Origin: a virus
Lineage: Duplodnaviria; Caudoviricetes
Reading direction: 5' to 3' (one strand)
IMG/VR virus record: IMGVR_UViG_3300029913_000001
DNA length: 64,000 nt
Both the position numbers and the translations under genes were made by a program. Positions 7,827 through 18,186 of the stretch are shown piece after piece. Below the pieces are notes generated by a model, which did not search any database, was not told the DNA's origin, and saw nothing but the letters and a program-made list of their open reading frames with translations. Position 1 is the first letter of the stretch. Every line of letters begins with the position of its first letter.

Positions 7827-8417
7827 TTACTTTTTAATGTCATTGTATCCCGCCAAATCTCGTATTTGTTGAATGTCGAAAAAATTTTTTGTTTCCCACA
7901 ACGTTGAGGATTCGGTTAACACGAATCGAATATTTTTTGCAGTATCGTTATAATTATCGATCAGTTCATTTTCGGTGTGTAATATACGATAATTATAACC
8001 ATCATACGCGAGAATTTTATGACCCGACCTTAATAATCGTTTCCATACCAATAATCCTGAATCAGGTACCTGATCATCGCTAAATAATCGAATACCTTTT
8101 TTTGAATCCTTAAGAATAGCATCGTATAATTCATCGGCATACGGTCCAATTCCCTTATCTTTTTTGCCGAGTAAATGAACTACTAATCCTTGCGGCTTTT
8201 TTTCTAATTCTATTGCAAGCTGAATATCGCCATTGACCTCAAACCAATAATATATCATTGAATCTAGATCAATTTTTCTAAGATTTCTATTAGATATCGG
8301 TTTTATACCAAGCGCGAGTAATTCATCTATATTTCTCTTCAGAAACTCGTAATAATCGGCTAAGCCGATTGGTTTCGGCGATTCAGCGATCCAAGTTTCA
8401 TAGAAGTTCGATTTCAT
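7827..8417 (-). CDS. Divergent GNAT-fold paralog family member
   Basis: YYWFE..IQLAIELEKKPQGLVVHLLGK.DKGIGPYADELYDAIL..IRLFSDDQV..SGLLVWKRL. Confidence 0.7.
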   Translation of the reverse strand: MKSNFYETWIAESPKPIGLADYYEFLKRNIDELLALGIKPISNRNLRKIDLDSMIYYWFEVNGDIQLAIELEKKPQGLVVHLLGKKDKGIGPYADELYDAILKDSKKGIRLFSDDQVPDSGLLVWKRLLRSGHKILAYDGYNYRILHTENELIDNYNDTAKNIRFVLTESSTLWETKNFFDIQQIRDLAGYNDIKK

Positions 8418-8643
8418 ATTAGATGAATTCCTTCGACAATATCTTGTTTTAATTTCTCACGTCGTTTACGTTTTTCTTTAAAATATTTTTTGAAGTGGCA
8501 CATAGTACAGCCACAATTCATATTCCATTTCGAATACTTACCCCATTCGGGTAATAATTCTATGTTCCACCAGTGTGGACGCCAAATATTTTTATACCTT
8601 TCGATCGGAAAACCAGGGCGTTCAGGCCCTGGATTAGATCGAG

Positions 8644-8850
8644 TTAATTCTTAGGCATAGTTTCTTCCTTATCCGCGAAATACCTTTTAATTGCTGCTGA
8701 ATATTTTTGGTTTGCGATTGCTTGCTGCATTCCTAAACCGCCGAGCATTATAGATTTCTTAATTCCGTTAAGTGGATCATCTTCGGCTAGCACACAATCA
8801 TTTTCTTGTGGATGATCGAAATTAGCGGTCGTTATGTGATATTGTTTCAT
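8644..8850 (-). CDS. Hypothetical protein
   Basis: True start is probably MKQYHITT; the longer ORF call runs through tRNA-His. Confidence 0.5.
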   Translation of the reverse strand: MKQYHITTANFDHPQENDCVLAEDDPLNGIKKSIMLGGLGMQQAIANQKYSAAIKRYFADKEETMPKN

Positions 8851-8860
8851 ATTACCTACT

Positions 8861-8949
8861 TGGGGTGGCCGACGGAAGTCGAATCCGCGATGTTCTTTTG
8901 AACCCAGGGTCACAACCTGGCGCAACAAACCGACAGTTGCCTCAGCCAC
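8861..8949 (-). tRNA. tRNA-His(GUG) with long variable arm
   Basis: Acceptor GTGGCTG/CGGCCAC, C73, CCA; anticodon arm CCAGG-TTGTGAC-CCTGG; variable stem GTTC-AAAA-GAAC. Confidence 0.85.
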
Positions 8950-9249: not shown

Positions 9250-9418
9250 TATAAAATTCCAGCCTCGTTTCTATTTTTAAAAGTTCTTATATCCTCATCT
9301 ATTTCTTTTTGAGTCGGATAATATTTTTTTGCGCAATCGTCGCATAAAAGATTTTCGGATCCCGGAAAATAAGTAAGTGGCTTATTATATTCATCGCAGC
9401 CGAAACATGGATAATAAT

Positions 9419-10198
9419 TTAAGTCCATAGAGAATTCCTCACTTTAATTAGTCGAATCAACATTTCGGTATCTTCTTTTTCGTATGTTGCGTCTATTCGG
9501 CGCATACCAGCAAGCATCTTTTTAACTCGTTTGCGATCTTCCGGTGCGGTTTCACCTAATAGTTCAGGCTTATTATTACAATAATCAGTCCACCCAGTGG
9601 AATCCATTGGATCTAATCTCGCTGAATATATTTTTTTCCACCAATTATATAATGATAGGATTTCGATAGCATTCTTTGCCTGCTCCATAGGTTTTCCATA
9701 TAACTTATTGGCCGGATCAATTCCAGAATTATTATCATAAATCAATTTCGATTCCCAAGTAAGATGGGCAATTCCCGCCTCAGCGCTACGCCACGTTCTC
9801 CAACGAAATATTCCATGACTCCACCAAGGCGCAGAATATTTCTTTTTTGCTTCATCATCGCAATTGATACAAAGCCATGCTTTTTCGATTTCAACAAAAT
9901 CTACTAATTCATCAAATAGACAAGGTAGAAATCTATTGTCAACATCCACCCATTGACCTCTCTTAAGATGCGATGCCTTTGCTGTTAGTTGATGAGTTTT
10001 TGTAACCCATCTATTATTGATGTAATATTTAATATCGTATAATCTTCGGAAAGGCCAATAAATAAAATCTTGTATTGCATCTAACGCGGTTTCCGCGATC
10101 CAACATCTAATGTTCCATTTGCTGGATGACAATACATATGGTTTACTTTTACCACGAATTAAATTTGCAATTTTAGAACAACTCCAATAGGTAGTCAT
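9419..10198 (-). CDS. Trp-rich hypothetical phage protein
   Basis: 259 aa ORF in operon context. Confidence 0.7.
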   Translation of the reverse strand: MTTYWSCSKIANLIRGKSKPYVLSSSKWNIRCWIAETALDAIQDFIYWPFRRLYDIKYYINNRWVTKTHQLTAKASHLKRGQWVDVDNRFLPCLFDELVDFVEIEKAWLCINCDDEAKKKYSAPWWSHGIFRWRTWRSAEAGIAHLTWESKLIYDNNSGIDPANKLYGKPMEQAKNAIEILSLYNWWKKIYSARLDPMDSTGWTDYCNNKPELLGETAPEDRKRVKKMLAGMRRIDATYEKEDTEMLIRLIKVRNSLWT

Positions 10199-10983: not shown

Positions 10984-12036
10984 TTAATCTATTTTGTTTC
11001 CTAACTTTTCATAGATCGTATTGTGTGTATGGTTTACTCTAACAAAGATTGCCATATCAGAAAGTTCCTTTAAATTTTCGGAGCCGACATAAGTTAACGT
11101 GCTTCTTAAGCCACCCAGAATATCTAAAACTGTCTTTTCGACTGGTCCTTTTGCAGGTAACATAACGTGGCGACCTTCAGTTGTGCGATATTTTGCCATA
11201 CCGTTATTGAATTCCTGCATAGCCTTCTCGCTGCTCATTCCATAAAATTCAACAAATGAATTACCGGTTGAATCGGTAATTTTTTTCGCTTCTACTTCGT
11301 CATGCCCCGCTAACATAGATCCGAGCATTACAAAATCTGCGCCGGCGCCGAATGCTTTTGCAATATCACCAGGATTTTTACATCCGCCATCCGCGCAAAT
11401 AAATGCATTAAGATCATAGGCAACTTCTGAACATTCTGAAATTGCGCTTATCATTGGATACCCGACTCCGGTTTTCAATCGAGTCAAACATCCTGCTCCC
11501 CCTCCGATCCCAATCTTTACAACATCGGCTCCGGCTTTGATAAGAGATTCGGTTTGATCCGGGGTAACAACATTGCCGGCCATAATAATTGCTTCTGGAT
11601 TTTCATCGCGTAATCTTGAAACTGTATCAAGAAAAGTATTGCGATATCCATTGGCAACATCAATACATACTTTGTCTATAGTTTTATTATAGTTTACTCT
11701 TTTAAATTTGTCAAGATCTTCTTTATTTGATCCGACCGTATACCAACATAAATTTTTTGCTAGATTAGTTTCAAAAAAGGCTGTTAACTCATCTTCATTA
11801 TAATACTTATGCAGTGCGGTCATTAACCGATGCCTGCCCAATTCTTTAGCCATCTTGAAACTAGATACGGTTGTCATATTAGCCGCAATAATAGGAATGC
11901 ACGGCAATGATTTGTTAACCCGGGGAAAATAAAACGTTCTCGATAGATCAACCTCTGATCTCGAATTAATATTATTGGGTTGTGGCACGATTAATACATC
12001 ATCAAAATCTAATTTAATGTCGTTTGATATTTTCAT
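10984..12036 (-). CDS. guaC: GMP reductase
   Basis: MKISNDIKLDFDDVLI.P, IIAANM, IDVANGY, GNVVT, KIGIGGG.GC.TR..TGVGYP, ADGGC, FVMLGSMLAGHDE, FYGMSS; start moved downstream of tRNA-Gly. Confidence 0.9.
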   Translation of the reverse strand: MKISNDIKLDFDDVLIVPQPNNINSRSEVDLSRTFYFPRVNKSLPCIPIIAANMTTVSSFKMAKELGRHRLMTALHKYYNEDELTAFFETNLAKNLCWYTVGSNKEDLDKFKRVNYNKTIDKVCIDVANGYRNTFLDTVSRLRDENPEAIIMAGNVVTPDQTESLIKAGADVVKIGIGGGAGCLTRLKTGVGYPMISAISECSEVAYDLNAFICADGGCKNPGDIAKAFGAGADFVMLGSMLAGHDEVEAKKITDSTGNSFVEFYGMSSEKAMQEFNNGMAKYRTTEGRHVMLPAKGPVEKTVLDILGGLRSTLTYVGSENLKELSDMAIFVRVNHTHNTIYEKLGNKID

Positions 12037-12058
12037 TTTTATCCGATTTGTTAAGAAA

Positions 12059-12142
12059 TGGAGCGGGCTGCGAGGTTCGAACTCGCATGTCTTACGACAG
12101 TGGTTTGGAAGACCACCGGGCAACCAATTACCCAAAGCCCGC
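12059..12142 (-). tRNA. tRNA-Gly(UCC) with long variable arm
   Basis: GCGGGCT/AGCCCGC-T-CCA; GTGGT-CTTCCAA-ACCAC; variable TGTC-GTAA-GACA. Confidence 0.9.
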
Positions 12143-12151
12143 TTAAAATTG

Positions 12152-12226
12152 TGGAGCCCCGAACCGGAATTGAACCGGTGACCTTTCGCTTACAAGGCGA
12201 GCGCTCTACAACTGAGCTACCAGGGC
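12152..12226 (-). tRNA. tRNA-Thr(UGU)
   Basis: Canonical cloverleaf; CTTGTAA loop; T73, CCA. Confidence 0.92.
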
Positions 12227-12252
12227 CTATTACTATTTATGCTATTTTAATT

Positions 12253-12328
12253 TGGCGCTCCCGAACGAATTTGAATCGTTATTTCTAGCTTAGGAGGCAA
12301 GTGCCCTATCCAGTTGGACGACGGGAGC
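12253..12328 (-). tRNA. tRNA-Arg(CCU)
   Basis: GCTCCCG/CGGGAGC-G-CCA; CTCCTAA loop. Confidence 0.88.
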
Positions 12329-12335
12329 ATGTTAG

Positions 12336-12409
12336 TGGAGCCGAAGCTGGGAGTCGGACCCAGAACTAGACTATACCAAAGTCTTGTTATACCGTTTAAC
12401 TATTTCGGC
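12336..12409 (-). tRNA. tRNA-Thr(GGU)
   Basis: GCCGAAA/CTTCGGC; AGACT-TTGGTAT-AGTCT; CCA. Confidence 0.85.
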
Positions 12410-12698
12410 TAGCAGCGTGTCTATCTTCGCACCAGCAATATTCATCCTGATCAATAAGTACCTTGCATTGCTCATAATGATTATGGCCGCAATCAGGACA
12501 TTTTGATGAAGATATCTTCTCCTGTGACTCTGTACAAGCGGCGCATCTAATAATTCGTTTATTGATTATCTCGTGACCAGGTACTATATCTAGTATCGTT
12601 TCGAATATATTACATACATCGATAATTCTCCACTTACAATTACCGCAATGAATATTATCGCTATCCGGAGTAATCGTTATCATGTGATCAAAATTCAT
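12396..12698 (-). CDS. Cys-rich (zinc-binding) hypothetical protein
   Basis: CGNC, CAAC, CPDC and CWC motifs. Confidence 0.6.
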   Translation of the reverse strand: MNFDHMITITPDSDNIHCGNCKWRIIDVCNIFETILDIVPGHEIINKRIIRCAACTESQEKISSSKCPDCGHNHYEQCKVLIDQDEYCWCEDRHAASRNS

Positions 12699-12709
12699 AT
12701 TTTTCCTTT

Positions 12710-13375
12710 CTACTCCAAAGGTAAATTATTTTCTTCCCGAGCTTTACGTATTTTAAATGACGGCCAAATATTAATTTGATCATCCGTAGATTCCGATAAA
12801 ATATATCGATAATTCTGATAATTACGATCTTTGCCGAAGAATGATTTTAATTCGTCTTCCGTTTCGCATCGAGTAAAACTTGCGCCGGGTTTGGTTCGAT
12901 CATACACAGAAACTACATGGCCATCCGAAAATAATCTGTGCCAAATCTTAAAACCGGATGTACTAAGAGTTTTATCACTTACGACTAAATTTTTTGCAGA
13001 GCCGGTTAAATTTTTCAAATCTTTTAAAATGGCAATATACAGGTCACTTGCATACGGGGCACCAGACGCCTCAGGATTTTTTCCGGTCATTAACACCGCG
13101 ACATTTCTTGAGGTCTTTTCTAATGATGTTCCTACCCAGAATATTCCATTTTTTTCATACCAGTAATAGACCTCTCTATCGAAATCCATCCTGTATAAAT
13201 CGGCACCTATCTTTTTAACTGATTGCGGCCGAGCTTTTCGTAAATCATTAATATCGTTTTTAACGGTTGGCCAGGCGGCGAATTCCATCTGTTCTGGCTC
13301 TTCATAAAGCCAGGATTCATTGAAAGAGAGCCTATCGTCAATATCAGATTCAGCTAAAATATCTTGTATTTTCAT
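12710..13375 (-). CDS. Divergent GNAT-fold paralog with MKIQDILAE leader
   Basis: YYWYE..LEK..VAVLMTGKNP...APYASDLY..VVSDKTLS.SGFKIWHRL; near-identical to 14562..15242 in the C-terminal half. Confidence 0.75.
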   Translation of the reverse strand: MKIQDILAESDIDDRLSFNESWLYEEPEQMEFAAWPTVKNDINDLRKARPQSVKKIGADLYRMDFDREVYYWYEKNGIFWVGTSLEKTSRNVAVLMTGKNPEASGAPYASDLYIAILKDLKNLTGSAKNLVVSDKTLSTSGFKIWHRLFSDGHVVSVYDRTKPGASFTRCETEDELKSFFGKDRNYQNYRYILSESTDDQINIWPSFKIRKAREENNLPLE

Positions 13376-13432
13376 CTTTCCGACCACTAATCCAATTTTT
13401 ATCTTCATTAATTTTCATATTTTTTCTTAAAT

Positions 13433-13508
13433 TGGTGCTCCCCACGGGATTTGAACCCGTATACTCGGTTTAGAAGACCGAGGCCCTATCCGGTTGGACG
13501 AAAGGAGC
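13433..13508 (-). tRNA. tRNA-Arg(UCU)
   Basis: GCTCCTT/GGGGAGC-A-CCA; CTCGG..CTTCTAA.. Confidence 0.88.
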
Positions 13509-13516
13509 AAAAACTT

Positions 13517-13590
13517 TGGAGCCGATGACAGTACTTGAAACTGCATTACCCGATTACGAAACGGGTTTTCTACCTTTGAAATACATCGGC
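13517..13590 (-). tRNA. tRNA-Thr(CGU), copy 1
   Basis: GCCGATG/CATCGGC-T-CCA; TTCGTAA loop. Confidence 0.85.
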
Positions 13591-13598
13591 AAAAACTA

Positions 13599-13765
13599 TT
13601 TGCATTGACGGGTTAATTATCAACCGCTAAGTTGACCTCTCACCGCTATTCAGTTGCTCTCAAAGAGCATCCCATTATATTGCCGTGATCGCAACATAAT
13701 ATCGACTGATTTAAGACCACATCACCTGCGTAATCTCTCGTGTCCGCTCCACGATGCAATGCAAA
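13599..13765 (-). ncRNA. Unassigned structured RNA, long copy (homolog at 16084-16166)
   Basis: Closing stem TTTGCATTG/CAATGCAAA; inner hairpins ATTATGTTGC/GCAATATAAT and TGCTCT/AGAGCA; both ends align with the second copy. Confidence 0.6.
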
Positions 13766-13769
13766 TTTT

Positions 13770-13824
13770 TGAGCCCCCGAAAAGATTTGAACCTTTTCCA
13801 TCCTGAACCGACGAGTTACGGGGC
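13770..13824 (-). pseudogene. Collapsed tRNA (acceptor stem plus T-arm, no anticodon arm)
   Basis: GCCCCG...AAAGG-TTCAAAT-CTTTT-CGGGGGC-TCA. Confidence 0.5.
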
Positions 13825-13836
13825 AAAACTTATCCT

Positions 13837-13976
13837 GGACTTACGGTGGAGAATGATAGTAGCATCAACCATCAAGAAGGAGAGCAGCATCCTAGTTCTT
13901 ATGCGCATTATCACCTAGGCCCTCGCTCTTAGTGCGACCTCTTCCCGCTATAGCTGCGGTTCTCTCCCGTAAATCC
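13837..13976 (-). ncRNA. Unassigned multi-stem RNA (~140 nt)
   Basis: 10-bp closing stem GGATTTACGG/CCGTAAGTCC; internal GAGAG/CTCTC, CCGC/GCGG, TCGC/GCGA, CCTAG/CTAGG and TGATGGT/ACTATCA. Confidence 0.55.
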
Positions 13977-13982
13977 ACGATA

Positions 13983-14234
13983 TTAAAATCTTATAATCTT
14001 ATATCGTTTTTTTGAATGAATATTATTATAGGCCCATTTTTCAAAACGCTTCGTCGCAGAAATTATTTCCGGAGTTGTAAAATCCGGGGTAAAACCTGCG
14101 AGTAGTTCGCCTATAGGTTTATAAATCTTTCTCATGCGATTGATTAAATTTATTTTTACAGCTTTTGGCAATTTTTTATATTGCGTCAAAATACATACCG
14201 ATACGCTTTCGATTTCGTTTAATCTAATTGGCAT
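13983..14234 (-). CDS. Hypothetical basic protein
   Basis: 83 aa ORF. Confidence 0.5.
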   Translation of the reverse strand: MPIRLNEIESVSVCILTQYKKLPKAVKINLINRMRKIYKPIGELLAGFTPDFTTPEIISATKRFEKWAYNNIHSKKRYKIIRF

Positions 14235-14254
14235 TCTAATATCCTATAAATTCT

Positions 14255-14470
14255 TCAATCTTCTGTTCCCAATGGTGATTTCTCTCAAAATTTTCGTATT
14301 CCGAAATTACTAATCACTTCGACTAGCATAAAATTTGACTCACACAGAACATACTGATAATCTTAATATTTATGATCGGCGTGAAAATATTTCTTCATAT
14401 CATTTAGTGTTGGAAATTTAGCGAACGATGAACCAGGAGCGGTTTTATCATTTAACCCAACTTTATGACC
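14255..14470 (-). pseudogene. Truncated C-terminal fragment of a GNAT-like paralog
   Basis: Translates GHKVGLNDKTAPGSSFAKFPTLNDMKKYFHADHKY*DYQYVLCES...FGIRKF*EK, matching the C-terminus of 15256..15903; two in-frame stops. Confidence 0.8.
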
Positions 14471-14481
14471 GGATATATAAT

Positions 14482-14557
14482 TGGTAATCCCGAGCAAATT
14501 TGAATCGTTATTTCTAGCTTAGGAGGCAAGTGCCCTATCCAGTTGGACGACGGGAGC
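14482..14557 (-). tRNA. Chimeric tRNA-Arg(CCU)/(ACG)
   Basis: 5' part identical to 12253..12328; 3' end (TTTGCTCGGGATTACCA) and 3' flank identical to 16325..16400; acceptor mismatch C2:U71. Confidence 0.8.
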
Positions 14558-14561
14558 AATA

Positions 14562-15242
14562 TTAATCTAATGGTAAATTATTTTCTTCTCTAGCTTTACG
14601 AATTTTAAATGATGGCCAAATATTTATCTGGTCGTCCGGCGTCTCTGATAAAATATATCGATAGTTTTGATAATTTCGATCCTTACCGAAAAAAGATTTT
14701 AATTCATTTTCTGTTTCACACCGAGTAAAACTTTCTCCAGGTTTTGTTCTATCATATACCGAAACAACATGTCCATCGGAAAATAATCTATGCCATATCT
14801 TAAAACCGGATGCACTCAATGTTTTATCACTTACTACCAAATTCTTTGGCGATCCAGATAAATTTTTTAAATCGTTTATGATTGCAAGATACAAATCGCT
14901 GGCATATGGACTTCCGGACGCATCGGGATTTTTTCCCGTCATTAAAACAGCAACATTTCTAGGTTTCTTTTCTAAAATCGATCCAATCCAAAGTATTCCA
15001 TCTTTTTCATACCAATAATATACATCATTTTCAAAATCCATTTTATACAAATTGTTATTGATTTTTTGCACGGCATTTGGCCGGGCTTTTTTAAGATCAT
15101 TAATATCGTTTTTAACCGCCGGCCACGCTGCAAATTCCATCTGTCCTGGCTCTATGAAGAGCCAGGATTCGTTGAAGTCAATTCTTCCGTCAATTCCATC
15201 GCCCCAATTTTTATCTTCATTTATTAATTCATTGACCTTCAT
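14562..15242 (-). CDS. Divergent GNAT-fold paralog with MKVNELINE leader
   Basis: Same motifs as 12710..13375. Confidence 0.75.
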   Translation of the reverse strand: MKVNELINEDKNWGDGIDGRIDFNESWLFIEPGQMEFAAWPAVKNDINDLKKARPNAVQKINNNLYKMDFENDVYYWYEKDGILWIGSILEKKPRNVAVLMTGKNPDASGSPYASDLYLAIINDLKNLSGSPKNLVVSDKTLSASGFKIWHRLFSDGHVVSVYDRTKPGESFTRCETENELKSFFGKDRNYQNYRYILSETPDDQINIWPSFKIRKAREENNLPLD

Positions 15243-15255
15243 ACAGCTTTTTCAC

Positions 15256-15903
15256 CTAATCTAATGGTAAATTATTTTCCTCTCTCACTTTCCGTAGGCT
15301 AAAATATGAAAATGCTTCAGCAAAATTCTTAGCTGATTCAGATAACACATATTGATAATCTTGATAATTTTTACCAACACCAAAATATTTTTTCATTTCG
15401 TCGAATGATTTAAAATGTTTAAATGTCTGCCCCGGATTATTTTTATCGTAAAGACTAATTTTATGGCCCGTATCAAATAATTTTTCCCAAATTTTAAAAC
15501 CGTCTTCACTTAATGTTTTATCGCTTCTTAAACAAATATTATGCATACAGTCTTTTAGAATAGATAGATATAAATCACTTGAAAACGGTGGGACCCCGAA
15601 TAAATTAGGATCTTTTCCAACCATTCTAACAATATAGGCATACTTTTGTTTTTCTAGTGTAACCGCTAATACAATTTTATCATTCTTTTCTACCCAATAG
15701 TAAATGTTATTGGGTAATTCTAACTTTTTTAAATCCATATTCAATACAATAACATTTTCTGGATAAATTTTTATTATTTCCAACACAATATTTTTAATAC
15801 CGGGCCATGAATTAAACTGCATTTTTTCGGGAGACTCGTATAAAAATGCCCTATTAAAACTCGTTCTATCTGATTCTTCATTGCATATATCATTAATTTT
15901 CAT
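15256..15903 (-). CDS. Divergent GNAT-fold paralog with MKINDICNE leader
   Basis: YYWVE..LEK..IVRMVGKDP...PPFSSDLY..LRSDKTLSEDGFKIWEKL. Confidence 0.75.
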   Translation of the reverse strand: MKINDICNEESDRTSFNRAFLYESPEKMQFNSWPGIKNIVLEIIKIYPENVIVLNMDLKKLELPNNIYYWVEKNDKIVLAVTLEKQKYAYIVRMVGKDPNLFGVPPFSSDLYLSILKDCMHNICLRSDKTLSEDGFKIWEKLFDTGHKISLYDKNNPGQTFKHFKSFDEMKKYFGVGKNYQDYQYVLSESAKNFAEAFSYFSLRKVREENNLPLD

Positions 15904-15917
15904 ATTTTTCCTTAAAT

Positions 15918-15993
15918 TGATGCTCACTGCGGGATATGACCACGCATACTTGGTTTCGAAAATTGAGGCCCTATCCAGTTGGACAAACTGAGC
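15918..15993 (-). pseudogene. Degenerate tRNA-Arg(UCG)
   Basis: Aligns with 13433..13508; decayed T-loop (GGTCATAT) and anticodon stem; TCA in place of CCA. Confidence 0.65.
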
Positions 15994-16001
15994 AAAAACT
16001 T

Positions 16002-16075
16002 TGGAGCCGATGGCAGAAATTGAATCCGCATCTCCCGATTACGAAACGGGCACTCTACCATTGAGATACATCGGC
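16002..16075 (-). tRNA. tRNA-Thr(CGU), copy 2
   Basis: GCCGATG/CATCGGC-T-CCA; TTCGTAA loop. Confidence 0.88.
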
Positions 16076-16083
16076 ATACTTAT

Positions 16084-16166
16084 TTTCACTGACAGGTTAC
16101 TTACAAACCGCGTGAGTGCGTATATTATTGCTCAATCCCTCGCGTCTACTCTATGCTGCAATGAAA
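16084..16166 (-). ncRNA. Unassigned structured RNA, short copy
   Basis: Closing stem TTTCATTG/CAGTGAAA; homologous to 13599..13765. Confidence 0.55.
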
Positions 16167-16324
16167 TTTTAAACTCTTCTTAAACTTTTTGCTAATTTTT
16201 TAGCTTCTTTTCCTAATCGATTTGTTAATTTTCGTCTTTGTTTTTCGGAAGGTTGTTTGGATAAAAATGCTAAAATTGCTGCTTCCGTAATGGTAATGGT
16301 TGTCATATTACTCCAGTATATAAT

Positions 16325-16400
16325 TGGTAATCCCGAGCAAATTTGAATTGCTATCTCAAGCTTCGTAGACTAGTGTCCTATCCATTTGGACGACGGGATC
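16325..16400 (-). tRNA. tRNA-Arg(ACG)
   Basis: GATCCCG/CGGGATT-A-CCA; CTACGAA loop. Confidence 0.8.
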
Positions 16401-16417
16401 GTAATTATTAATAAAAT

Positions 16418-16497
16418 TGGTGCGTTCGGAAGGACTCGAACCTTCGATCATTTCCGATTTGTAAGAACGGTGTCTTGGCCACTCGACGCACGAACGC
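16418..16497 (-). tRNA. tRNA-Val(UAC)
   Basis: GCGTTCG/CGAACGC-A-CCA; CTTACAA loop. Confidence 0.85.
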
Positions 16498-16857
16498 ACT
16501 GTGTAAATCTATATATTTTACGCATTAATCTTTCTATTTAGATCATTTATTATTTTTGATAATTGCTTTCGTAACTGGCGGAGGCAAGTTTCTGGTTCCC
16601 AGCCTCGGGCAATTAAGTCAAGATAATTATCTAATGCAATCGTGACTGGATCTATTGGTTTAAGCATATTTTCCTCGTATATGAACTACCGCATTTCAGT
16701 GTGCTACCACGTCAAAAGCAGCGGCTCCTTGGGCAATTTGCCACGGGACCTATTATTGTAATACATATCTAGAAATTAATTTCCCAAAGAAACTTCAATT
16801 TTTAATGCAAATGAGTTCATTCGCTAATATTTATTCAAAATTCGGTGTTAGAATCAT

Positions 16858-16930
16858 TAGCCCCAGTAGGAGTCGAACCTACACTAAATTTCGTTCGAAG
16901 CGAAATTGACTATCCATTGCCGATGGGGCC
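16858..16930 (-). tRNA. tRNA-Arg(UCG), no encoded CCA
   Basis: GGCCCCA/TGGGGCT; TTTCG-CTTCGAA-CGAAA; TTCGACT T-loop. Confidence 0.75.
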
Positions 16931-16942
16931 TTATTAATTATA

Positions 16943-16972
16943 AGATACTCTATCCAGTTGAGTTACAGGACC
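16943..16972 (-). pseudogene. Orphan 5' half of a tRNA
   Basis: GGTCCTG-TA-ACTC-AACTGGATA-GAGT-A with no 3' half. Confidence 0.5.
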
Positions 16973-16974
16973 AG

Positions 16975-17175
16975 TTAACTTGATATTTTATTAACAAACA
17001 TTTTATCAATTTCTTCTTCTGCACTAGCCCATGCTTCCTTTTCATTTCGAACAACACGACTAATAAGCATATAATAAGGAGTGTCCAGAGTATCAATCGA
17101 TAATGCACATTCATTTCGGCAAAATTTAATTAATTTTGGAAAAGGATAAATCGATAAAACTTTTTCTTGGTTCAT
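16975..17175 (-). CDS. 'YPxA...AW' family protein
   Basis: KVLSIYPFP ... EAWASAEEEIDKMFVNKISS. Confidence 0.6.
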   Translation of the reverse strand: MNQEKVLSIYPFPKLIKFCRNECALSIDTLDTPYYMLISRVVRNEKEAWASAEEEIDKMFVNKISS

Positions 17176-17180
17176 AATTT

Positions 17181-17255
17181 TGGTAGACCCTCAGAGAATC
17201 GAACTCTTGTATTTCCCTAATCGGGGGAATGTCCTAGCCACTGGACGAAGGGTCT
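17181..17255 (-). tRNA. tRNA with Glu-like body and GAU (Ile) anticodon
   Basis: AGACCCT-TCGTCCAGTGGCTAGGAC-A-TTCCC-CCGATTA-GGGAA; ends CTACCA like the tRNA-Glu copies. Confidence 0.7.
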
Positions 17256-18186
17256 ATAAACCTTTCTTTTCATTCTGCTGCCGTTGTAACTTATTGGCAA
17301 CAGCCGTTCTTTCTTCTTCACTTAACTGATCAACATCAATTCTTGCATCTAATAATTCTTTAATAAGTGAATCTACATCTTTATTTATGCGAGCTTTTTT
17401 CTTATGTTTAATCGGCGCATCAATAATTTTCGATGTATTGTGAAGATCAAATGCAAGTAGCATAGATAATGCCAATGGATCAAAAACAATAACGAGTAAA
17501 ATAATCATCCAACGTACGGCATGATCTAATAAATCCTGACTTGGGTTATCTCCATACATCATTGCAGCAATATATTTAATTGGCCCTACATCAACGTTAT
17601 TTTTCTGCAATTCTAATTTTAAAGGTGCTTCTTTTTGCTGTAACTGATCAATCTGTTTCTGTTTATCTTGCATATCAGAATTGATTTGCGCTCGTTCTTT
17701 TTGCTGGCCGTTTCGAACTGTTAGTGCCTTTGTTGCACCAGTTTCATTTGTGCTGCTCGAAATTACTTGTGTTATTGCGGTATCTAATTGTTTAAGTGTG
17801 CCTTCATCGGATTGTTTTTCTGCTTGTAAGGTTGTAATTTGGCTATCGTAAATTCCAATATTCGATTGAATTGCATCGCCAGTTAAACTTTGTGCTACGT
17901 GAGCCTTTGAAAGAAAACCAAAAATACCGATTGAGGTAATCGTCATTAAAATTATAATTGCGGCTGATAGATAAATTCTTAATAAGAATTTGGTTCGACC
18001 CCAATTTTCGTGAAGAAATAGTGTAAGAACTACCTTCGCAATTTCTAGTACCGTGCCCATTGTTATTACAGCAGTAAATGCTCCAGAAAAAATACTTGTT
18101 AAACCATTAATTGAATAAAAAGCTGCGGTACAACTTATCGATAATGCAGCCAAAAGGAGTGCATAATCTAAAAATTTGTTCTTCAA
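17254..18186 (-). CDS. Membrane protein with coiled coil
   Basis: Three N-terminal hydrophobic segments, a Q-rich coiled coil and a C-terminal TM segment (WMIILLVIVFDPLAL). Confidence 0.75.
   Translation of the reverse strand: MKNKFLDYALLLAALSISCTAAFYSINGLTSIFSGAFTAVITMGTVLEIAKVVLTLFLHENWGRTKFLLRIYLSAAIIILMTITSIGIFGFLSKAHVAQSLTGDAIQSNIGIYDSQITTLQAEKQSDEGTLKQLDTAITQVISSSTNETGATKALTVRNGQQKERAQINSDMQDKQKQIDQLQQKEAPLKLELQKNNVDVGPIKYIAAMMYGDNPSQDLLDHAVRWMIILLVIVFDPLALSMLLAFDLHNTSKIIDAPIKHKKKARINKDVDSLIKELLDARIDVDQLSEEERTAVANKLQRQQNEKKGL

Follow-up and report, generated by a model that had tools for sequence, protein, structure and literature searches.

The stretch analysed here, 64,000 nucleotides (nt) of IMG/VR record IMGVR_UViG_3300029913_000001 (hereafter the window), is part of the genome of a giant phage of the Caudoviricetes from peat, on a contig of 292,778 bp, and carries 29 transfer RNA (tRNA) genes, all of which are encoded on the minus strand. 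Two related elements, copy A and copy B, lie within this array. A preliminary description made from the sequence had put them forward as a two-copy non-coding RNA standing immediately 5′ of tRNA-Thr(CGU), and the minus strand does contain both, with the start and end sequences that were given for them. Copy A (13599..13765, read from 13765 to 13599; 167 nt) is a full-length structured RNA in which helices P1 to P8 are arranged around a five-way junction, and copy B (16084..16166, read from 16166 to 16084; 83 nt) is an internally deleted derivative of such an RNA. Each copy is followed after a spacer of 8 nt by a tRNA-Thr(CGU) gene called by both ARAGORN and Rfam (13590..13517 downstream of copy A and 16075..16002 downstream of copy B; minus strand). 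The two tRNA-Thr(CGU) genes share 84% identity, and pairing is preserved by compensatory changes in the gene on the copy B side. The 3′ motif common to A and B occurs exactly twice in the window, relative to 0.01 occurrences expected from shuffled sequences.

Conserved fold of copy A

A full-length homologue of copy A was found in one related peat phage (L001:8069-8233; 76% identical), which was reached by way of contigs that carry the gene for the nearest homologue of the GNAT-like paralogue encoded near both copies. The related phage is represented by eight independent JGI/ENA contigs and by one IMG/VR record of 125 kb, and the homologue is identical in all nine. The real evidence of constraint comes from this homologue in another phage and not from the likeness of copy A to copy B. 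The RNAalifold consensus of copy A and its homologue comprises 45 pairs in eight helices around the five-way junction; eight of these pairs were changed on both sides and eight on one side (to or from G-U), none was broken, and all 24 changed paired positions still pair.

Because RNAalifold picks a structure that is compatible with both sequences, these counts were compared with two null models. Shuffling of alignment columns gave a mean of 2.7 both-sided changes (maximum 7; 0 of 300 shuffles reached 8), and scattering the same number of substitutions at random over copy A gave a mean of 3.25, with 0.7% of cases reaching 8; the eight both-sided changes observed are therefore to be set against about three in the nulls (P<0.01). 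The consensus energy of −41.7 kcal/mol was likewise well separated from that of the nulls (−16 to −19 kcal/mol). By itself, copy A had a minimum free energy (MFE) z-score of −3.6 relative to shuffled sequences, and it scored 199 bits against covariance model R1. When copy B was added as a third sequence, 98% of the cells paired and ten both-sided changes were counted, dropping to 0–2 when the partners were slid by 1–3 columns; copy B was aligned by the covariance model, and this alignment is model-fitted and leans towards structure. Taken together, these comparisons bear out the earlier proposal that copy A is a structured RNA with compensatory changes.

The functional strand is that of the tRNAs. 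The consensus energy rises from −41.7 kcal/mol in the forward direction to −18 kcal/mol for the reverse complement, and 12 cells occupied by G-U would become C-A on the other strand, from which it follows that the RNA runs with the tRNAs. Furthermore, a conserved open reading frame (ORF) is excluded by a 2-nt indel between copy A and the homologue. The loops and junctions are invariant (GAGYGGA, CAGGUGAUG, UAAAUCAGUCGA, UGCGAUCACGGCAAUAUA and CUGAAUAG) while the stems vary. CUGAAUAG was also looked at as a possible hammerhead-type core (CUGANGA...GAAA), a reading that was rejected because the core strings were not matched on inspection.

In the numbering of copy A, the closing helix P1 (8–10 bp) pairs positions 2–9 with 159–166, that is, 13757-13764 with the 3′ strand at 13600..13607 on the minus strand. 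All of its cells are paired; at column 4/164 G-C is exchanged for U-A, which, together with a U-A to U-G change, agrees with the earlier statement that this helix is kept despite substitutions. A linker of 2 nt (CA) leads from P1 to P2, a D-arm-like hairpin (UCGUG-GAGCGGA-CACGA; 13738..13754, minus strand; 12–16 with 24–28) in which C-G is replaced by U-A and G-C by G-U in the relative. P3 (13713..13737, minus strand; 29–38 with 43–53) is a long hairpin with compensatory pairs at 30/52 and 35/47 and an invariant loop, CAGGUGA, that is the same in copy A and the relative. The central domain (13650..13709, minus strand), in which P4 (57–61 with 112–116) encloses P5, with its invariant loop GAUCACG, and P6, sits at the place of the long variable arm of a tRNA and is absent from copy B; the sequences of P6 differ between the two phages but the hairpin is the same, with two compensatory pairs. 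The invariant loops of P3 (GGUGAU) and P5 (GAUCAC) are complementary over 4–5 bp and could form a kissing interaction.

In the 3′ domain (13608..13646, minus strand), P7 (4 bp; 120–123 with 155–158) encloses P8 (130–136 with 141–147), and each of the two helices has two compensatory pairs over the three sequences. P7 runs on into P1 without a break in the 3′ strand, so that the predicted secondary structure contains a branch of 12 bp (8+4). This domain also holds the GCGGTT..TAACC motif, which had been described as a conserved hairpin. The conservation stands, as the sequence GCGGTT...TAACC is kept in all three known copies, whereas the hairpin is not supported: the proposed GGUU/AACC pairing overlaps the covarying helices P7 and P8, and it is uninformative because it is invariant in all three sequences, so that it is not a pairing supported by covariation.

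No family of Rfam 15 was matched by copy A, copy B or the relative's copy, whether the cut-off was the gathering threshold, E≤5 or E≤10, in line with the preliminary description, which had been unable to place the RNA in a family. A single sub-threshold match was returned for the relative's copy, to Yfr17, which scored 14.6 bits (E = 5.3) where the gathering score is 50.

The gene order in the relative is GNAT-like gene, structured RNA of ~160 nt, tRNA-Val(UAC), homologue of copy A and GNAT-like gene. The neighbourhood conserved in both phages accordingly consists of an upstream tRNA or tRNA remnant and the second RNA of ~160 nt, and not of tRNA-Thr(CGU). In the window this second structured RNA (13837..13995, minus strand; 91% identical to L001:7804-7962) is syntenic with copy A, as it is in the relative; it has 52 predicted pairs, three of them compensatory, is better conserved than the surrounding coding DNA, and gave no Rfam match. 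Downstream of it and 5 nt upstream of copy A lies a collapsed tRNA (13770..13836, minus strand) that has an acceptor stem, a D-like hairpin and a canonical T-arm (GGUUCAAAUC) and no anticodon arm, at the position that is occupied by the intact tRNA-Val(UAC) in the relative; it was called neither by ARAGORN, with introns allowed and lowered thresholds, nor by Rfam. In three of the five GNAT-like paralogues of the related phage, the coding sequence is divided near residues 68–95 between two ORFs that lie in different frames (L001:7139-7809, 8252-8922 and 9349-9998). The split is identical across all eight independent contigs and could represent shared pseudogenisation, programmed frameshifting or a two-gene form.

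RNA contigs were available from two peat metatranscriptome libraries of one study, which had been selected as holding this stretch; being assembled, with low cover dropped, they give no RNA ends, strand or level. One contig (depth 9.5) is identical to 13661-13841 and comprises the collapsed tRNA together with the 5′-most 105 nt of copy A, and another is identical to 13773-13922 and comprises the collapsed tRNA and the 3′ half of the second ~160-nt RNA. The sequence of copy A is present in RNA libraries, with reads that bridge the tRNA remnant and copy A. Parts of the region 12000-17500, including copy B, were without RNA contigs, which is not evidence of silence.

Segmental duplication and the origin of copy B

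Both copies lie inside a duplicated cassette made up of the RNA, tRNA-Thr(CGU), tRNA-Arg and a paralogous GNAT-like gene of ~225 amino acids. The shared ends of A and B are 70–74% identical, as compared with 74% for the neighbouring paralogous coding DNA and 78% for a decayed copy of tRNA-Arg(UCU) (window ~15922-15997, minus strand, compared with the intact gene at 13433-13508), all of which stem from the same duplication. Because the identity of the RNA copies is not above that of the decayed tRNA-Arg or the paralogous genes, neither their similarity nor their double adjacency to tRNA-Thr(CGU) constitutes independent evidence of function or constraint. In the relative, no tRNA-Thr lies downstream of the RNA. 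The adjacency stressed in the preliminary description is the product of one segmental duplication.

The decayed tRNA-Arg(UCU) copy now has UCG in its anticodon loop and a broken anticodon stem, and it was called by neither ARAGORN nor Rfam. At 14363-14557 (minus strand), a remnant of a GNAT-like paralogue (a 44-amino-acid ORF resembling the C-terminal part) lies beside a weak tRNA-like match, which scored 34 bits with the Rfam tRNA model, was not called by ARAGORN and resembles tRNA-Arg(ACG) at 16325-16400; this remnant is a further sign of duplication and decay of the cassette.

Copy B aligned only to columns 1–40 and 124–167 of copy A, positions ~41–123 being gone. Its P1 retains 8 of 8 pairs, P7 3 of 4 and P8 6 of 7, with some compensatory changes, whereas P2 is degenerate (2 of 5 pairs left) and the 5′ strand of P3 is retained without its partner. 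This orphan half-helix shows that copy B originated by internal deletion (~83 nt) from an A-like ancestor and not by a modular swap of the middle; the earlier picture, in which a conserved core surrounds a multi-hairpin domain in A and a short linker in B, is thus not upheld. Against R1, copy B scored 19.7 bits (E = 0.001), with only the ends and the 3′ domain aligning, and its folding was no better than that of shuffled sequence (MFE z = −0.03). By a rough binomial estimate, which relies on the model-fitted alignment, the 17 of 19 pairs kept at ~28% divergence go beyond neutral decay (P ~0.01). Copy B may once have been constrained as an acceptor/T-like 'top half', or it may just be young debris; it has probably degenerated, or survives at most as a minihelix remnant.

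Interpretation and alternatives

The predicted secondary structure of copy A has the topology of a class-II tRNA, with the 12-bp acceptor/T-like branch and the D-like arm 2 nt after P1, both with compensatory support. Copies A and B were nevertheless unmatched by the Rfam tRNA model (RF00005) at E≤5, and ARAGORN, run with introns allowed (-i0,150) and a lowered threshold (-ps80) on A, B and the relative's copy, called no tRNA. No T-arm with a 7-nt T-loop (UUCRANY) was found next to the 3′ acceptor strand, where P7 encloses a 31-nt loop containing hairpin P8; an alternative hairpin, GGUU-(GAUAAUU)-AACC, is without U54/U55/C56 and lies 3 nt away from P1. Likewise, no 5-bp stem capped by a 7-nt anticodon loop with U33 was found, as the P3 loop CAGGUGA has A33 and a stem of 9–10 bp, and copy A has no encoded CCA, whereas the neighbouring tRNA-Thr, tRNA-Arg, tRNA-Val and tRNA-Leu genes that were read all encode it. 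An RNA without a T-loop, a U33 anticodon loop or an encoded CCA can be expected not to decode. Elsewhere in the array, tRNA-His(GUG) (window 8861-8949, minus strand; 89 nt) has an extra hairpin, GUUC-AAAA-GAAC, in its variable region, which is unusual for tRNA-His.

The fold of copy A is conserved, its strand is assigned, it belongs to no known family and copy B is a deletion derivative. As to what copy A is, we give about an even chance to a stable, non-decoding, tRNA-shaped RNA that is matured by the tRNA-processing machinery and acts in trans. Such an RNA would be transcribed with the tRNA array and freed by the enzymes that trim the neighbouring tRNAs: maturation of the 3′ end of the tRNA or tRNA remnant that precedes it would define its 5′ side, and ribonuclease P (RNase P), by cutting at the tRNA-Thr that follows it, would define its 3′ side in this genome. 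Once released, it would remain as a stable small RNA with a compact fold, whose role in trans would most plausibly be the occupation of a tRNA-binding protein. Copy B would be a paralogue that arose by the segmental duplication, was internally deleted and keeps only P1 and P7/P8 as helices.

Several observations count against this proposal. The covariation comes from only two independent lineages, a number at which a test of the R-scape type has no power, and the sequence of the relative alone folds no better than shuffled sequences (z = −0.49). Local alignment of the ends of the RNA with all 29 tRNAs of the window gave no score above shuffles, and the tRNA likeness is therefore topological only. 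One RNA contig bridges the presumed 5′ end, and a discrete mature species is so far a prediction. Both target and function are pure inference, and maturation and stability are inferred as well. Finally, the family is narrow in range, because R1, run with filters off on the examined stretches of distant tRNA-array relatives, gave no homologue; the relatives searched in this way were those of a 310-amino-acid membrane protein (61% and 53% identity) and a 353-kb phage reached as a relative by its GMP reductase. In the latter phage, an anticodon-CUA tRNA (called tRNA-Pyl, amber suppressor type) lies beside the GMP reductase gene at L048:11721-12198, together with two tRNA-like genes with 2-nt or 4-nt 'anticodons'.

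Searches by other routes gave a similar distribution. A scan of IMG/VR with the 3′ motif extended by NGTCANTG returned no match because the relative differs at NGTCANTG. Patterns based on the loops recovered only the same relative and two GC-rich chance matches in IMG/VR, and the same relative with two chance matches in JGI metagenome contigs; in 185,579 species genomes they gave 18 matches, none of which fitted R1. Comparison of 12000-17500 with GenBank phages by blastn produced tRNA matches only, and relatives of the GNAT-like paralogue at 35–40% identity came from T4-like surroundings that hold no tRNAs. One sample contained a third close lineage (76% and 75% identity).

A more specific form of the proposed trans-acting RNA, which we regard as tentative and of low probability, is a purpose-built, non-decoding tRNA mimic. 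With an 8+4 acceptor/T-like branch, a D-like arm and an anticodon-like arm, the last held to a second loop by a GUGAU/AUCAC kiss, the mimic would be expressed from the array of giant phages to occupy or mislead a tRNA-binding factor. Candidate targets are a host anticodon nuclease, another tRNA-targeting defence, or the multi-copy GNAT-fold proteins of the phage itself, for which the RNA would be a decoy or antitoxin-like partner. Of the three functions suggested in the preliminary description (a processing ribozyme, a riboswitch-like leader and a protein-binding decoy), the last is possible in the form of a tRNA-shaped decoy.

It is unlikely that the RNA acts in cis, as a riboswitch-like or protein-binding leader of the downstream GNAT-like paralogue gene. 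The relative's RNA does end 18 nt before the start codon of its GNAT-like paralogue, both copies in the window precede a GNAT-like gene with only tRNAs between, and aptamers typically have a junction of several helices in which the junction nucleotides are invariant. In the window, however, the RNA and the gene are parted by two tRNA genes that are excised from the transcript; no terminator-like site was seen next to either copy, and no alternative pairing that would sequester the ribosome-binding site was seen in the relative. The downstream paralogue of the relative is split into two frames in eight of eight contigs and the RNA is still conserved, and most paralogues are without such an RNA, there being one RNA per genome as against 5–7 GNAT-like paralogues. 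A structural model of the paralogue (predicted local distance difference test score 74.7) gave weak Foldseek matches to GNAT acetyltransferases and to phage Mu Mom (best E = 3 × 10−3); these matches support the 'GNAT-like' label loosely, and nothing links the paralogue specifically to the RNA.

We also consider it distinctly unlikely that the two copies are functionless, decaying leftovers, either spacer or pseudo-tRNA, that recent duplications have swept along in a tRNA array undergoing fast rearrangement. The double changes of copy A and the relative (eight, as against about three), the maintenance of pairing wherever a paired position has changed (24 of 24) and a consensus energy well beyond the range of the nulls speak against such an origin, as do loops that are invariant while stems change, the z-score of copy A and the presence of its sequence in RNA libraries. 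The region is nonetheless rich in duplication and decay (the decayed tRNA-Arg, the collapsed tRNA and the paralogue remnant), the identity of A and B is no higher than that of the decayed tRNA copy, copy B folds no better than shuffles, and the family is confined to two sister lineages.

A highly derived yet still chargeable or decoding irregular 8/4 tRNA, similar to an allo-tRNA and with the P3 loop serving as a GGU anticodon loop, is very improbable. The 8+4 branch, the 2-nt linker, the D-like arm with a GG loop and the five helices, as in a class-II tRNA, would suit it, and the CAGGUGA loop gives GGU at 34–36 and GUG at 35–37, a combination that occurs in irregular 8/4 tRNAs (PMC5389517). 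The negative results with the Rfam tRNA model and ARAGORN, A33 in place of U33, the stem of 9–10 bp, the replacement of the T-loop by a 31-nt loop with its own hairpin and the lack of an encoded CCA all argue against it. Least credible of all is a ribozyme, whether self-cleaving or processing, with the polycistronic tRNA precursor as its substrate, since, for all its site between tRNA genes and its compact conserved junction, no Rfam ribozyme family was matched at E≤5–10, RNase P and tRNA 3′ processing already account for the adjoining cuts, and copy B is without the whole central domain; as readings of copy A, both the leader and the ribozyme have little support.

Copy A and its homologue represent a new RNA family of narrow range, supported at present by two lineages; the kind to which it belongs, small RNAs encoded in phage tRNA clusters, is a known one. 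Since T4, such clusters have been recognised as carriers of stable small RNAs. A large and barely explored supply of these RNAs is to be had from huge phages with 30 or more tRNAs, and this case offers a candidate family with exact coordinates, a fold supported by covariation, a covariance model and, in copy B, a natural deletion variant. If the RNA proved to mimic a tRNA and thereby to engage a factor of defence or of processing, the expansion of tRNA arrays in giant phages would be tied to the contest over tRNA-targeting immunity.

Comparison with known tRNAs and phage RNAs

Copy A shares with canonical tRNA (RF00005) the order of helices and the lengths of linkers, in which a closing stem, 2 nt, a D-like arm, an anticodon-like arm and a variable-arm-like domain are followed by a T-like helix contiguous with the 3′ acceptor strand, and it shares the strand and location of the 29 tRNA genes of the phage. 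It differs in its length of 167 nt and in having no T-loop, U33, encoded CCA or score with the tRNA model.

Mukai et al. (2017, PMC5389517) described irregular 8/4 and 9/3 tRNAs (allo-tRNAs and 'tRNA1') of soil and peat bacteria and phages, which they detected in metatranscriptomes from peat and forest soil. Some of the 8/4 tRNAs have GGU at 34–36 with G37, and some are unused in translation (PMC5389517). A 12-bp acceptor/T branch split 8+4 and a five-stem junction are common to these RNAs and copy A (PMC5389517). In contrast, the 8/4 tRNAs are recognisable tRNAs with T-loops and 7-nt anticodon loops, whereas copy A is about twice as long and fails tRNA detectors, in a comparison made by description only (PMC5389517). 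The 8+4 branch and the GGU/GUG loop of copy A recall the irregular 8/4 tRNAs and provide a lead.

Bacteriophage T4 encodes RNAC (species 1) and RNAD (species 2), stable RNAs of its tRNA cluster whose function is still unknown and whose stability and discrete ends were shown by Northern blot (PMC3014915, PMC9697503). R1, run with filters off on the T4 tRNA region, gave no match on rnaC or rnaD, and the best matches elsewhere in that region (E = 0.02–1) were noise-like. A canonical T-arm (GGGUUCGAAUCCC) stands next to the closing stem of RNAC and none is found in copy A; moreover, a discrete stable RNA is known for T4, whereas copy A is known from genes and assembled RNA contigs. RNAC and RNAD, at 119–139 nt, lie inside the tRNA gene cluster on the tRNA strand, and copy A is likewise encoded in a phage tRNA cluster on the tRNA strand. 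As in copy A, the two ends of RNAC, 5′ and 3′, pair in the manner of an acceptor stem and enclose enlarged hairpins. By this analogy of setting and architecture, T4 RNAC and RNAD are the closest precedent for copy A.

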